Source: an archaeon
Lineage (GTDB): Archaea; Micrarchaeota; Micrarchaeia; Anstonellales; Anstonellaceae
Assembly (NCBI GenBank): GCA_020056635.1
Contig: JAGVHI010000018.1
Span: 1 to 60,821, forward strand
DNA length: 60,821 nucleotides
Reading direction: 5' to 3'
Part shown: positions 26,860 to 60,821 of the stretch, piece after piece
Numbering within the stretch: the stretch's first letter is position 1
Layout of the letters: every line of letters starts with the position of its first letter
Notes under the pieces: generated by a model
Seen by the model: only the letters and a program-made list of their open reading frames with translations
Databases searched by the model: none
What the model was told of the DNA's origin: nothing
Made by a program: the position numbers and the translations under genes

Positions 26860-27966
26860 CTATTTCACAATTCCCTCGCTTTTGAGGAACTCCCCTGCCA
26901 TTTGGTTTATCCCGTCACCCAATTTAACCCTTGCCGTCCAGCCCAATTTTTTTTGCGCACGGGCGGGCGAGATTCGCCTGTCGGAAGAGAGTATTTCCAC
27001 GTACTCGGGCTGCATTTTAGGCCGCTTGCCAAAAAGCCTAGCGCCATGCGCCATGGCGCTTGCGGCAACCCACGCAAGCCTTGCATCCGTATGCCTTGTG
27101 GGGGGGGCTGCGCCCACCGCTTCTGCCGCAAGCTTGAGGATTTGAGATTGCGATAGGGTTTCATTCTGCACAATATTGTAAATTTCCATCCCGGGCGTGC
27201 AGCTTTTCGCTCCAGCCGCAAGCATGATTGCATCCGCAACATCGTCCGCATGCACGAATGGGATTATGTTGCCGCCTGCGCCAAGTATGCGCATTTTGCC
27301 TTTTTTTAGCATCCGGAAAACCGCCATGTACCCGTCGTTGAACCCAGGGCCGTAGACCACTCCTATACGAAGCGCGGTTATGCGCATTCTGCTTGAGAAG
27401 TTGGATGCCGACTGCTCGGAAGCAAGCTTGCTTGCCCCGTAATCCGTGGTGGGAACGGTTGGGGAATTTTCGTCTATTTTCTCCCCTGCGATGTTCTTGC
27501 CATAAACAGAAATCGAGCTTGCGAGTATGAAGTGCTTCACTCCGGCATCTGAGGCTGCGTTTGCGATGTTTTCCGTCCCTGTGGAGTTTATTGCAAATAG
27601 TTTTTCCCGGCCGCCCATGAAATCAAGCGAGGCTGCAAGGTGAATTACTGTATCCACCCCCTTGCAAGCGCCAGAAAGCGATTTTGCATCAGTGACATCG
27701 CCAACGAACGGCTCAACGCCCTTTTGGAGCAGGTGCTCGTTTCCTTGGACGCGCCAACCACTTTCGCGAGCGGCTAAAAAACCATCTTGCACCTTCGGTG
27801 CAAGCTCGTAAAGCCGCTTCGCAGCTTTCCAACCGCTCACTCGACCCTGCGAAAAACCCGTCATCGCGCCCTTCCGCACTAGCGCCCTTGTTTTGAATCC
27901 CTTTTGCAGCAGCCTGCGGCAAACAGCCTGGCCTAGCCTGCCTGTTGCCCCGGTGACAAGGATCAT
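26860..27966 (-). CDS. NAD-dependent epimerase/dehydratase with a 41-aa element-derived insert
   Basis: ILVTGATGRLG, VIHLAA, SSISVYG, YGASK. Confidence 0.9.
   Translation of the reverse strand: MILVTGATGRLGQAVCRRLLQKGFKTRALVRKGAMTGFSQGRVSGWKAAKRLYELAPKVQDGFLAARESGWRVQGNEHLLQKGVEPFVGDVTDAKSLSGACKGVDTVIHLAASLDFMGGREKLFAINSTGTENIANAASDAGVKHFILASSISVYGKNIAGEKIDENSPTVPTTDYGASKLASEQSASNFSSRMRITALRIGVVYGPGFNDGYMAVFRMLKKGKMRILGAGGNIIPFVHADDVADAIMLAAGAKSCTPGMEIYNIVQNETLSQSQILKLAAEAVGAAPPTRHTDARLAWVAASAMAHGARLFGKRPKMQPEYVEILSSDRRISPARAQKKLGWTARVKLGDGINQMAGEFLKSEGIVK
27748..27870 (-). repeat. Family-2 39-nt hairpin element interrupted by an 84-nt branched hairpin
   Basis: GGCGCGATGACGGGTTTTTCGCAGGGT[84 nt]GGTTGGCGCGTC; related to 53380 and 60216. 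Confidence 0.75.
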
Positions 27967-28016
27967 GGATTGGTTTCTCGTTTGGTATTTAAATCCCAAG
28001 CGGGAAAGGTGCCAGT

Positions 28017-29606
28017 ATGGAATCCAAAATGGTTTTCGTTTGCGACACGTCGGTCATAGTGGATGGCAGGATACTTGACTTGGTGCGGGAAGGGAAAGTG
28101 TCTGGCAGGGTGGTGGTACCGCGCGCCTCTGTCGCGGAGCTTGAGCACCAGGCGAATTCGAAAAAGGAGACAGGGTTTGCGGGATTGGACGTGCTCCAGA
28201 AATTGCGCGAGCTGCAAAAGGATTTTGACATCGAGCTGTCGTTTGACGGGGAGAGGCCGACCGGGTTTGAGATTGGGCACGCGAAATCCGGGGAGATTGA
28301 TGCGAAAATCCGCAATCTTGCAGGCGAGATTGGGGCGACATTGGTCACAGGGGACAAGGTGCAGCACGAGGTTGCGCTTGTCGAGGGCATTTCGGTAATC
28401 TACTTGCGCTCGCACGAGGAAACCAAGGGGCTTTCATTTGAGCAGTATTTCGCGCCTGACACGATGTCGGTCCACATAAAAGAAGGCCAGCCGGTCGTTT
28501 CAAAGTCCGGAAAGCCCGGCTCGGTTGTGGTGAAGGAGGTTGGCGCTGCGCTCTCAACCAATGAGGTCCGGGACATTGCGAAAGAGATTGTTGAGGCTAC
28601 AGAGAGGAACAGGGACTACTATTTTGAAATCGAGCGGGAGGGCGCGACTGTGATACAGATGGGCAAATACAGGATTGTGATTACGAAACCGCCGTTCTCG
28701 GACGGGTTTGAAATCACGCTGGTCAGGCCGATTGCAAAATTCAAGTTGGCTGATTATGAAATGTCAGACAGGCTGCGCGGAAGGCTCACTGGAGCTGCCG
28801 AGGGGATAATAATCTGCGGCCCTCCGGGAAGCGGGAAAAGCACGTTTGCAGCAGCGCTTGCAAACCACTACTACTCACTTGGGAAAGTGGTGAAAACGAT
28901 GGAGAGCCCAAGGGACCTGCAGGTGGATGACGGGATTACACAGTACGGGCCGCTGGAGGGGAGCTTTGAGCTCACCAATGACATCATGCTGCTCGTGCGA
29001 CCGGATTACTCGGTCTATGATGAGATGAGGAAGACTGTTGATTTTGCGGTGTATGCGGACATGAGGATGGCAGGGATTGGATTGGTGGGAGTGCTGCATG
29101 CGAACAAGGCGATTGATGCGGTGCAGCGGTTCATCAATAGAGTTGAGCTCGGGATGATTCCGAATATAATTGATACCATTGTGCTCATCAAGGGGGGCCG
29201 GGTCGCAAAAGTGTATTCAATGGGATTGCTCGTGCGCGTTCCTACTGGCATGATTGAGGAGGATTTGGCAAGGCCGGTAATTGAGGTTCGGGATTTTGAC
29301 ACTGATAAGCTGGAATATGAGATTTACAAATTCGGAGAGGAGACTGTAGTGCTGCCCATTACGCAGGAGATGGTCGCAAAGCAGCAAAAGCTAAGCGAGC
29401 CGATTGATGAGGAGCGGGTAAGCGCTGCGCTTGAGAAGCTGCTTGCGAAAATTGTGCGCAGGGATTTCCAGATAGAGTTTGAGGGAAGAAAGGCGGTGCT
29501 TTTGCTTGATGAGAGGGACATGGCATCAGTGATTGGAAAGGGCGGGAAAAACATCTCGCAGCTTGAGAAGAAGGCCGGTGTGAAAATAGACGTGAGGCAG
29601 CTTTAG
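28017..29606 (+). CDS. PIN-domain ATPase with C-terminal KH domain (PINA family)
   Basis: [39 protein letters not shown]. Confidence 0.92.
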
Positions 29607-29643
29607 CATTCTTTCTTAACTTCGCTTAGCCATAGAACAGCAG

Positions 29644-30000
29644 ATGCGCCAACTCCGCGTGAAATTGATGCGATGGGGCGAGGATCTAGGCAATGTGCCA
29701 ATTATTCTTGTGCGCGAGAGGCGCGCTGGAATGAGCCAAATGGGGCTCGCTTTTTTCCGCGCGTTTCGGGACTCTAAAGACCTGTGGAGCAGGGCATGCG
29801 TCTTCTGTGGGGCAATGGAGTTCGTGAGTGGGGGCGGCGCCAATGCATCAGACCAGAAAATGGTTGCAACCGAGGCTGCGCTGCTTGAGATACGCGTGAG
29901 GGCGGATGAGAAGATTCCTGTTGAGGAAAAGGCGCTTATTTTCAGGGAATCCGGACTTGCAAAGCTCAACCCGCGCCTGTCCAATGCAGTGCATTTGTAG
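29644..30000 (+). CDS. Hypothetical protein
   Basis: 118-aa ORF that fills the gap between co-oriented genes. Confidence 0.5.
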   Translation: MRQLRVKLMRWGEDLGNVPIILVRERRAGMSQMGLAFFRAFRDSKDLWSRACVFCGAMEFVSGGGANASDQKMVATEAALLEIRVRADEKIPVEEKALIFRESGLAKLNPRLSNAVHL

Positions 30001-59771: not shown

Positions 59772-59837
59772 CACACCTCCCGAGTTCGTTCCTCCCGCAA
59801 CCTTAATAAACCCTCAACGACAAAGTAAGCCCTGCGT

Positions 59838-60092
59838 GCCGGGATGGCAGAATCTGGTATCGCGTACGACTGGAAATCTCCCTTTTGAAAGAAATGAGGT
59901 ACAAGGGGAACGCAATCCGGTTATCGTATGCCCTCACGGGCTTATGGGTTCAGGCCCTTTTTCTTTCGCGCGACGAAAGAAAAAGCCCTTGGGTAAAAAG
60001 AAAGAGAAGGGACCAAAGAAAAAGACCCTCGGGTTAAAAAGAAAAAGTGAATCGCTGAGAAAATGGGCTGCCTATAAATCCCATTCCCGGCG
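59838..60092 (+). tRNA. tRNA-Ser(GGA) with two introns: 59876-59922 (37/38) and 59952-60075 (T-loop)
   Basis: Acceptor GCCGGGA/TCCCGGC plus G73; anticodon stem TACGA/TCGTA; variable arm GCCC/GGGC; T-stem ATGGG/CCCAT; the loop TTCAAAT is restored after splicing. Confidence 0.88.
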
Positions 60093-60116
60093 TTTTTAAT
60101 CAATAAAGGTGTATGA

Positions 60117-60821
60117 ATGGCTGAAAAGACAGAACCAAAAAAAGAGCATCAGGGGAAGCCTGCAGAACAGCATAAGCAGCAGCAAAAGCCGCAGGATTCG
60201 AAAGGCACCCAGCAGGGCGCGATGGCCAGTTCGTCGCAGGGCGGTCAGCACGTCCCACAAGGCGGGCAGGCAAAATCTCCTCAGCACGGAACGGCAGCTG
60301 CGCAGCACGCCGAGAGGAGCGATTTGAGGGGGATTGTCAGGATTGCGGGAAAGGACCTGCAGGGGCACGTGGCGCTCAAGCGCGCAATAACATATGTGAA
60401 GGGAGTGGGCTCGAATTATGGGGATGTGATTTCAACGATTGCCGCAAGGGAGCTTGCAGTGCAGCCGACAGTGGAAGTCGGAACCCTCTCCGAGCAGCAG
60501 ATTGAGAGGGTTGAATACATACTCACGCACCCGACGGAGTTTGGGGTGCCAAGATACCTGCTCAACAGGCAGAAGGATTTCACCACCGGCGCAGACAGGC
60601 ACATAATCGGGACCGATTTGGCTTTCACCGTGAAGCAGGATATTGAGCATGAGAAGGAGATTCTCTCGTGGAGAGGCTACAGGCATGCATATGGGCAGAA
60701 AGTGCGCGGCCAGCGCACGAGGACGGCCGGCAGGACAGGCATGACTGTCGGGGTCATCCGAAAGAGCATACTTGCAAAGGCCGGGGCTGGAGCGGTTACC
60801 GCAGCAGCTGGAGCACAGGCT
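60117..60821 (+). CDS. rps13: 30S ribosomal protein S13 with a long Gln-rich N-terminal extension (partial)
   Basis: IVRIAGKDL.G, KGVG, P.YLLNRQKD..TG, WRGYRH..GQKVRGQRTRT; runs off the window. Confidence 0.95.
   Translation, partial: MAEKTEPKKEHQGKPAEQHKQQQKPQDSKGTQQGAMASSSQGGQHVPQGGQAKSPQHGTAAAQHAERSDLRGIVRIAGKDLQGHVALKRAITYVKGVGSNYGDVISTIAARELAVQPTVEVGTLSEQQIERVEYILTHPTEFGVPRYLLNRQKDFTTGADRHIIGTDLAFTVKQDIEHEKEILSWRGYRHAYGQKVRGQRTRTAGRTGMTVGVIRKSILAKAGAGAVTAAAGAQA
60216..60254 (+). repeat. Family-2 39-nt hairpin element, in-frame in rps13
   Basis: GGCGCGATGGCCAGTTCGTCGCAGGGCGGTCAGCACGTC. Confidence 0.8.

Follow-up and report, generated by a model that had tools for sequence, protein, structure and literature searches.

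A 39-nt hairpin repeat within unrelated genes of a Micrarchaeota genome, a probable selfish coding palindrome

Known palindromic repeats and the 39-mer

Selfish palindromes that lie in frame within genes are best known from Rickettsia. The palindromic elements of Rickettsia (RPEs; Ogata et al. 2000, reviewed in PMC10969869) are described as in-frame copies in unrelated genes, with empty orthologues and without a transposase (PMC10969869). Their size is given as 105-150 bp (105-146 nt in PMC3184786), and 44 copies were reported for R. conorii (PMC10969869/PMC3184786); for repetitive extragenic palindromic (REP) sequences a length of about 35 nt is stated (PMC3184786). [quoted passage not shown] Here we analysed a stretch of 60,821 nt, hereafter called the window, from an archaeon of the Anstonellaceae (Micrarchaeota; contig JAGVHI010000018.1 of assembly GCA_020056635.1), in which a 39-nt hairpin (the 39-mer) is found within unrelated genes. 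The window is contig C1 of a metagenome-assembled genome (MAG; G000) of 1.10 Mb in 27 contigs and with 78.8% completeness. We consider it probable that the 39-mer is a selfish palindrome of REP size that resembles the RPEs of Rickettsia and is kept only at permissive in-frame sites. The behaviour known from Rickettsia would then occur also in a genome-reduced DPANN archaeon, with an element of 39 nt. Literature searches on archaeal coding-gene palindromes, Micrarchaeota rRNA insertions and DPANN repeats yielded no description of such an archaeal element (supplementary files were not covered).

Several properties are shared between the 39-mer and RPEs. Both are palindromes repeated many times in a small genome, here with stable hairpins in eight full copies and one interrupted copy. 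Both lie in frame within unrelated housekeeping genes, each of which would gain the same peptide (here DnaJ twice, ribosomal protein S13, the tail of an EMC3/TMCO1-like protein, an epimerase and a PGM/PMM protein on metagenome contig L055). In both cases the insert is lacking in orthologues, a transposase is not known and the host is a genome-reduced symbiont. The 39-mer differs from RPEs in its length, its archaeal host, its strict sense orientation, the number of nine copies, and the occurrence of related hairpins in rRNA genes of sister genera; the two are likened by behaviour and not by sequence. The occurrence of this behaviour in a genome-reduced archaeon, with so short an element, suggests that coding palindromes recur when small symbiont genomes meet hairpin repeats.

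With REP/REPIN sequences the 39-mer has in common a G+C-rich imperfect palindrome of about 35-40 nt that is recognised as a hairpin, compensatory changes in the stem and dispersal as single copies. REPs are extragenic, are usually present in hundreds of copies and occur together with a RAYT (Y1 HUH) gene; many of them have a conserved 5' tetranucleotide, GTAG, beside the hairpin. In contrast, five of the nine copies described here are within open reading frames (ORFs), no Y1 transposase was found in the assembly and there is no fixed 5' tetranucleotide. MITEs are likewise short, non-autonomous, structured elements of archaea for which in-frame fusions are possible, but the 39-mer has no parent insertion sequence with matching ends and no clear terminal inverted repeats beyond the hairpin, and it is far shorter than a typical MITE.

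Copies of the 39-mer and empty sites in relatives

A preliminary description made from the sequence of the window had reported one hairpin, read as the same peptide, in three unrelated proteins. Copies were found at all three places (Table 1), and none would be expected by chance. A degenerate 39-mer matched the window exactly twice, at the two intact copies, with a chance expectation of 0.00 matches in 100 shuffles. The two intact copies are identical at 34 of 39 bases, the same value as given before. The third copy, on the minus strand (27870-27748), is composed of 27 nt, a gap of 84 nt and another 12 nt, together 123 nt. Deletion of all 123 nt rejoined the flanks of the insert in the epimerase, as had been claimed (RALVRK joined to QGNEHLLQKG, QGNEHLLQKGVEPFVGDV). 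The peptide of this copy reads GAMTGFSQG...GWRV. All three window copies are in sense orientation and use one common frame; the sense orientation and common frame reported for them held within the window, but the common frame did not hold genome-wide, since one of the two copies in DnaJ uses the second of the open frames.

The copy in the gene of the EMC3/TMCO1-like protein (former DUF106) is indeed within the ORF, where it occupies residues 171-183, but it is outside the conserved domain. The Pfam domain stops at residue 136 of 196, and the C-terminal tail carrying the copy shows no conservation whatever among relatives. Four nucleotides separate the end of this copy from the Shine-Dalgarno (SD)-like sequence GGAGGTG of the gene for ribosomal protein L34e, and GGAGGTG is found before the L34e start also in relatives. 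The S13 copy is located inside coding sequence, because the closest homologues have the same start (MAEKTEPKKE) and relatives have the same K/Q/P-rich N-terminal extension.

A genome-wide profile search with nhmmer recovered eight full copies, with E-values between 6e-13 and 1.5e-6, as well as the interrupted copy at E 0.017; the next matches were at E>2. The search for further copies that had been proposed thus added six in G000 beyond the window, and one more was found in the metagenome contig. Compared with each other, copies are identical at 31-36 of 39 bases. Five of the nine are in frame within ORFs, i.e. the three window copies and two in DnaJ, one of which lies in the Gly/Phe linker (read as RDDQFFGGRSARP, the case of the other open frame) and one in a loop of the C-terminal domain (GVMTSFSQGGQRA). 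The remaining four are at gene borders, where copies provide start and stop codons. One lies in the 66 nt that separate a Bud32-like kinase gene from uvrB and contributes its TGA as the kinase stop; another is between a small upstream ORF (RpoL-like by eye) and a signal-peptidase-like ORF without Pfam match; a third is within the last codons of TatD directly ahead of an NYN-domain gene, and the fourth is just 5' of a gene of the OMP-decarboxylase family (OMPdecase).

It is extremely unlikely that these copies do not form a family and owe their resemblance to chance, to convergent low-complexity coding sequence or to an assembly artefact. The data come from a single MAG, and the tails and linkers of the hosts are of low complexity, as such an explanation would have it. 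Against this stand the 0.00 matches in shuffles, the nhmmer E-values down to 6e-13, the occurrence of copies in three reading contexts and in non-coding spacers, and the presence of the hairpin in an independent metagenome contig and in another MAG. Moreover, a single sequencing run, of DNA and probably from the source sample, is listed for 52000-60821, and no RNA run. In its Logan contigs aligned to 41000-60821, one of them 13.6 kb long, both window copies are present without change and show no indel, joint or variant, with the limit that such contigs drop rare variants.

Every orthologue examined has an empty site. The 39-mer, allowing for up to 3 mismatches, was found in 0 of 40 relatives, a set in which G000 is the sole representative of its genus. 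In protein alignments, both DnaJ inserts were absent from 11 of 11 relatives, the C-terminal one as a clean gap of 13 columns; the epimerase insert was missing in 11 of 11 relatives, and the 13 residues of S13 were missing in all nine relatives having an N-terminus. The same was seen in the closest homologues drawn from a set of 5.8 billion proteins. DnaJ P0002 (287 identities in 374 aligned residues) has 15 residues fewer at each of the two sites, the epimerases P0122 (72% identity) and P0123 (71%) have 42 residues fewer at the insert site, and S13 P0172 (74%) lacks the insert; overall, the closest empty-site homologues are 72-77% identical. Identity of the DnaJ protein to the aligned relatives is 50-63%.

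A scan of metagenome contigs yielded a single one, L055 (1,596 nt), with the reciprocal situation; it carries an in-frame sense copy (GAMTSFSQGGQRV) near the start of a PGM/PMM gene. The PGM/PMM orthologue of G000 is empty at this point, with identities of 62.7% (aa) and 67.3% (nt), while the L055 hairpin and the copy in the DnaJ linker are identical at 45 of 48 positions. The element is far better conserved than its hosts, since its copies agree at 31-36/39 bases and these hairpins at 45/48, compared with the much lower protein identities of DnaJ and PMM given above. Judged from these alignments, presence or absence of the element is independent of the host gene. Near-identical copies, empty orthologues, extra copies and the reciprocal filled/empty pair all support the earlier proposal of a mobile coding palindrome in core genes. 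What had been set down as speaking against it, i.e. orthologues carrying the segment or a lack of other copies, is the opposite of what we found: extra copies exist and the orthologues are empty.

Some hosts have further length differences at or near the insertion points. The epimerase of relative G010, which is the most similar to that of G000 among twelve aligned loci, carries about 15 additional residues of its own in the same loop after the beta2 strand (L007 1448-1500), unrelated in sequence to the 39-mer. This post-beta2 loop seems to be generally permissive. S13 proteins of this Micrarchaeota family (window 60117-60340, loci L031-L041) have a K/Q/P-rich N-terminal extension of 40-60 residues and an Ala/Lys/Pro-rich C-terminal tail, both of which are outside the Pfam S13 domain. 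A second stretch of about 15 residues specific to S13 of G000 follows the hairpin (60255-60335); it was considered as a further repeat and rejected, as it is not a repeat.

All nine copies are in sense orientation relative to the gene or gene pair (p=0.002 under random orientation). This bias is not explained by stop codons, because sense and antisense of the 39-mer both keep two of three frames open. The in-ORF copies (five in G000 and the one of L055) are without exception exactly 39 nt long, compared with one of four border copies (Fisher p=0.033); the three others are 38 nt long and have lost one loop base. None of the six in-ORF copies uses the frame closed by TGA ((2/3)^6 = 0.088), and in the single case of an ORF running into a copy in that frame, the Bud32-like kinase gene, the copy terminates the ORF. 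Roughly 89% of the genome is under ORFs of at least 150 aa, yet four of nine copies are at borders, and the five internal copies are confined to tails, linkers or loops according to the alignments. This excess at borders, together with the placement in tails, linkers and loops, is probably a purifying pattern in which copies are kept at permissive sites. The inserts indicate where DnaJ, the epimerase and PGM/PMM can accommodate 13-41 additional residues, and their presence in phylogenomic-marker or core genes (S13, DnaJ) creates lineage-specific indels.

Table 1. Positions of the 39-mer, its host genes and the nested element in the window, and of the double-hairpin module elsewhere in G000
Feature	Position	Strand	Remarks
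Intact 39-nt copy, EMC3/TMCO1-like (DUF106) ORF	53380..53418	+	C-terminal tail, read as GVMTSSSQGGQHA
Intact 39-nt copy, ribosomal protein S13	60216..60254	+	K/Q/P-rich N-terminal extension, read as GAMASSSQGGQHV
Third copy, 5' arm and loop (27 nt)	27844..27870	-	NAD-dependent epimerase gene, after Rossmann beta2 strand
Nested 84-nt element of second repeat family	27760..27843	-	Between loop and 3' arm of the 39-mer
Third copy, 3' arm (12 nt)	27748..27759	-	Epimerase gene
Host, NAD-dependent epimerase/dehydratase family protein	26860..27969	-	Pfam; closest homologues lack 42 residues here
Host, EMC3/TMCO1-like membrane protein (former DUF106)	52870..53460	+	Pfam
Ribosomal protein L34e, downstream of DUF106	53435..53758	+	Start overlaps end of the extended DUF106 ORF
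Host, ribosomal protein S13	60117..60821	+	Pfam; gene continues beyond window end
Double-hairpin module	C8:52313-52391		
Double-hairpin module	C5:4642-4728		
Double-hairpin module	C21:24324-24442		
Double-hairpin module	C25:16557-16621		
Double-hairpin module	C23:6419-6468		
Double-hairpin module	C5:57006-57057		
Double-hairpin module	C5:1631-1700		

Constraint on the hairpin and its relatives in rRNA genes

Folding of the two intact window copies confirmed the hairpin previously claimed, with a stem of 12 positions including one A.G mismatch, a loop of 15 nt and energies of -15 to -20.5 kcal/mol. Each of ten intact hairpins forms one continuous stem (-11.9 to -22.2 kcal/mol), in most cases interrupted only by the 1x1 A.G mismatch, which lies five pairs below a loop of 14-15 nt. 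Standard pairs make up 93.6% of the aligned stem cells, and shifting the partner column by 1 to 3 reduced pairing to 22-69%. The covariation score was 0.208, compared with 0.141 in shuffles, and was reached by 7 of 500 shuffles. At position 5/35, for example, T-A, C-G and T-G alternate, with one C.A mismatch, and in frame 1 this replaces Val by Ala and His by Arg. Because such compensatory stem changes alter the peptide, it is the nucleic acid that is constrained and not the peptide. Hardly any variation occurs in the loop and in the five apical pairs; the epimerase copy has a weakened apical stem. A scan of G000 for other hairpins with the loop start CCAGTT found no members beyond the known copies.

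The T-run of the loop is broken in the EMC3/TMCO1-like copy (TTCTT, 53395-53399) and in the S13 copy (TTCGT, 60231-60235), whereas the other eight intact copies and the epimerase copy have at least four consecutive T. The broken T5 run in these two copies from regions of ribosomal protein genes may be due to selection against oligo-T termination. As a reading of the element as a whole, a terminator was rejected: the T5 run is located in the loop, is broken in both of these copies and is kept in both DnaJ copies, which gives no consistent pattern. We also rejected a C/D-box K-turn or K-loop, for which the motif GATGA in the 5' arm had been considered. In the K-turn consensus, box C and box D (CTGA) pair with each other and form tandem sheared G.A pairs. 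The opposite arm of the 39-mer (TCAGC) instead gives Watson-Crick pairs around a single A.G, and GATGA is not retained in the rRNA-borne relatives.

Seven hairpins with a related loop were detected in rRNA genes of six other Micrarchaeota, all seven in sense orientation. One of them was found with a looser pattern in the MAG G041, where the sense hairpin is within a 47-nt insertion in a terminal loop of the 23S rRNA near model position 2403. An 8x8 internal loop separates this hairpin from the rRNA helix (read by eye), and the pattern search found no copy in G041 besides the 23S one. With ten copies as the basis of a covariance model, 42 genomes from the family and 151 from the order were searched. 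Besides G000, it found six hairpins in five genomes, all inside rRNA genes and all sense. In G007 and G012 the hairpin is in the 23S near position 2366, as an insert of 46 nt into a terminal loop; in G047 and G102 it is in the 5' domain of the 23S, and G049 has hairpins at two places in the 16S. These matches are weak, with E-values per genome between 9e-5 and 9e-3, and G007 is closely related to G012; the location of all six matches in rRNA genes is far beyond chance. The site that is filled in G041 is empty in G007. The G000 assembly is without its own rRNA operon.

The rRNA hairpins have the loop start and the closing pairs in common, while their stems differ in a compensating manner. Across genera the loop motif, the unpaired A and the apical stem of 5 bp are kept, and the outer stem changes by compensation. 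In wider searches, the strict hairpin pattern had 0 matches in the genome contig collection. The looser pattern gave four matches among genome contigs, three of which (two from Pseudomonadales and one from Thermoleophilia) are without outer stem and were taken as chance. Three matches on viral contigs were rejected as family members, since all of them are without outer stem.

Other inserts were seen in the same rRNA genes. The 23S gene of G041 has a second insert of 47 nt with a different loop near model position 2366 (L056 2903-2949). The 16S gene of G049 (L068, contig C2, 177-899) carries some 720 nt where the Rfam model runs from position 828 to 938, in addition to inserts of 45 nt and 103 nt.

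One could take the hairpin for a functional RNA module, bound or processed by a conserved Micrarchaeota protein and acting, for example, in RNA stability, ribosome biogenesis or translational control; it would have been recruited to rRNA, untranslated regions and mRNAs, with the peptide as a by-product. Such a module would fit the conservation of loop motif, unpaired A and apical 5-bp stem across genera with a compensating outer stem, and the sense orientation of 9/9 copies in G000, of the L055 copy and of 7/7 rRNA-borne hairpins. Four copies in G000 end 2-5 nt before the SD-like sequence of a downstream start (by eye), and AGG is found no more than 9 nt downstream of 9 of 10 copies, compared with 21% at random sense positions (p=6e-6; post hoc), which would both be in line with a role in the transcript. 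Its hosts, however, are unrelated and share no pathway, and the insert is lacking in all relatives at every protein site. Three border copies are missing a loop base, the epimerase copy is split and weakened in its apical stem, and no partner protein was identified. We regard a functional module of this kind as unlikely.

Insertion footprint and possible routes of spread

Compared with the nearest empty homologues, the length excess is 45 nt at the two DnaJ sites and in PMM, and 126 nt (123 + 3) in the epimerase. The DnaJ C-terminal site is the sole site with identical flanks. Relative to P0002, the extra CAGAAG at this site creates a direct repeat AAG(G), which could be a target duplication of 3-4 nt. 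A flank duplication of the form AGG...AGG was considered and rejected because the lengths are inconsistent, and removal of AAGG together with the element breaks the epimerase frame. The upstream flanks of the copies have no fixed tetranucleotide in common. The AGG downstream of the copies, at a distance of 2-5 nt in 9 of 10, may point to a target preference and not to a part of the element; at the L34e junction it belongs to the ancestral SD-like motif. On the other side, all copies have AGG or AAG directly at or ahead of their 5' end.

As a selfish palindromic repeat that is non-autonomous, the 39-nt unit would have multiplied in this Micrarchaeota lineage by copy-and-paste of the hairpin, with about 39-45 nt added per event. 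Copies would survive only at places where they do little harm, such as between genes, in N- or C-terminal tails, in linkers and in in-frame surface loops, and in the latter they would most likely be translated as a 13-residue peptide rich in Gly, Ser and Gln. What is conserved is the hairpin and not the peptide, probably as the substrate of a copying enzyme. The orientation bias would be due to insertion into a particular strand, coupled to transcription, and not to function. We infer mobility as a process from the distribution of copies in the sequences, and translation of the inserts from frame and length only.

A number of points weigh against a selfish palindrome. All nine copies come from one MAG, and the sense orientation of 9/9 copies is not predicted by a plain DNA transposon (p=0.002). 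The footprint is seen only against diverged homologues and not base by base against the DNA of a close strain. The loop and apical stem conserved in rRNA hairpins of other genera could stand for a host function instead. Finally, the G000 assembly encodes no Y1/HUH transposase (PF01797: 0), TnpB RuvC domain, DDE_Tnp_1 or reverse transcriptase (RVT), an absence that is weak evidence given the completeness of the MAG stated above. The enzyme search covered these four families and the TnpB zinc ribbon, for which there was one sub-threshold match on contig C10; as a control, Y1_Tnp was detected in 6 of 14 reference genomes. An mRNA structural role, which the preliminary description had named as an alternative, may also apply, and a role or route at the RNA level would suit both the sense orientation and the rRNA copies.

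As a mechanistic variant of the selfish palindrome, mobilisation as single-stranded DNA in the manner of REPs or IS200/IS605 would require an HUH Y1 transposase from elsewhere that binds the imperfect hairpin in one DNA strand and integrates it with no classical duplication. Its gene would lie in the unassembled 21%, on a plasmid or virus, or would have been lost, and the orientation would follow the strand that is single-stranded in transcription or replication. The REP-like length of 39 nt, the imperfect palindrome with its fixed mismatch and conserved loop, and the strand specificity of the copies are consistent with this route, as is the clean 13-column gap in DnaJ, by which the insert can be near exactly the palindrome. 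We nevertheless judge it improbable, as Y1_Tnp had no match in G000 while the control was positive, the TnpB RuvC domain is missing, the upstream flanks are without a shared fixed tetranucleotide and, unlike REPs, five of nine copies are intragenic. Furthermore, the epimerase copy on the minus strand and the plus-strand copies are 25-32 kb apart with no turn in the cumulative GC skew between them. The orientation therefore appears to follow the genes and not an obvious replication strand, a weak argument since the skew is confounded by the coding strand.

Structured inserts that occur only in sense orientation are known as archaeal bulge-helix-bulge (BHB) introns, which are found in tRNA, rRNA and rarely in mRNA such as cbf5 (PMC12397907). 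By analogy, the hairpin might be excised from rRNA and mRNA by the epsilon2 splicing endonuclease of broad specificity, with ligation of the ends, unaltered products and perhaps spread by reverse splicing. The Micrarchaeota endonuclease is described to cleave relaxed BHB and bulge-helix-loop (BHL) motifs (PMC3239211, PMC3488258, PMC12397907). Long tRNA introns are common in G000, where 17 of 24 tRNA genes predicted by ARAGORN have introns of 21-137 nt (ten of at least 66 nt), and the 84-nt element nested in the epimerase copy has a double-hairpin module in common with other genome copies. Sense-only orientation and residence in rRNA loops would also suit a life cycle at the RNA level. However, neither a BHB nor a BHL motif could be drawn, as all ten intact hairpins are continuous stems, and length and frame are as in translated sequence. 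The in-ORF copies are multiples of three and stop-free in the frame used (6/6), while 3/4 border copies have 38 nt. This pattern counts against splicing because a spliced element needs no such constraint. The copy in the closed frame ends its ORF (Bud32-like kinase gene), and a reverse transcriptase is lacking in the assembly. At the level of sequence, the frame and length pattern and the missing BHB/BHL motif favour translation over splicing, and we disfavour an intron-like element as very unlikely.

A further reading, which we consider quite unlikely, is that of an orientation-locked RNA micro-element that colonises transcripts and not DNA sites. Always in sense, it would enter loops of rRNA and of another hairpin element, untranslated spacers and coding regions, either through insertion at the RNA level (e.g. 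reverse splicing by the permissive epsilon2 endonuclease together with a ligase, after which the RNA is copied into DNA again) or through insertion into the non-template strand exposed by transcription. If true, this would be a previously undescribed route of spread for an archaeal mobile element of about 40 nt, and mobile tRNA introns, inserts in rRNA and in-frame inserts in proteins would become one phenomenon of the Micrarchaeota. The interest of the 39-mer rests on its sense-only orientation, on the presence of related hairpins in the rRNA loops of sister genera and on the absence of a mobilising enzyme from the assembly. The sense orientation and the sister hairpins in 16S and 23S indicate a strand- or RNA-specific step which is not predicted by the known REP, MITE or RPE models. 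The hairpin could be used as bait for a hairpin-specific activity.

The nested element and other repeats of the genome

The 84-nt element in the epimerase gene sits exactly where loop and 3' arm of the 39-mer would meet, and is in frame and stop-free. It consists of an outer stem around two small hairpins. The epimerase composite is best read as a nested insertion of 39 + 84 = 123 nt. The double-hairpin module was found at no fewer than seven other places in G000 (Table 1), mostly intergenic, and often with an outer stem of variable sequence followed by a T-run. The module copy on contig C21 lengthens the C-terminal ORF of an endonuclease-III-like gene. On contigs C5 (56990-57080) and C23 (6400-6490), GTGATGA and CTGA motifs are present on both sides of the module, and these two modules look as if they were placed between the D' and C' boxes of a putative C/D-box sRNA gene.

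The window also holds a copy of a tRNA-associated palindromic family with polypyrimidine and polypurine arms (59943-60017), about 100 nt upstream of the S13 start. The Logan contigs of the run break inside this palindrome, at 59968/59974. A tRNA-Leu(CAA) gene with an intron of 31 nt is located at 14355-14471 of the window.

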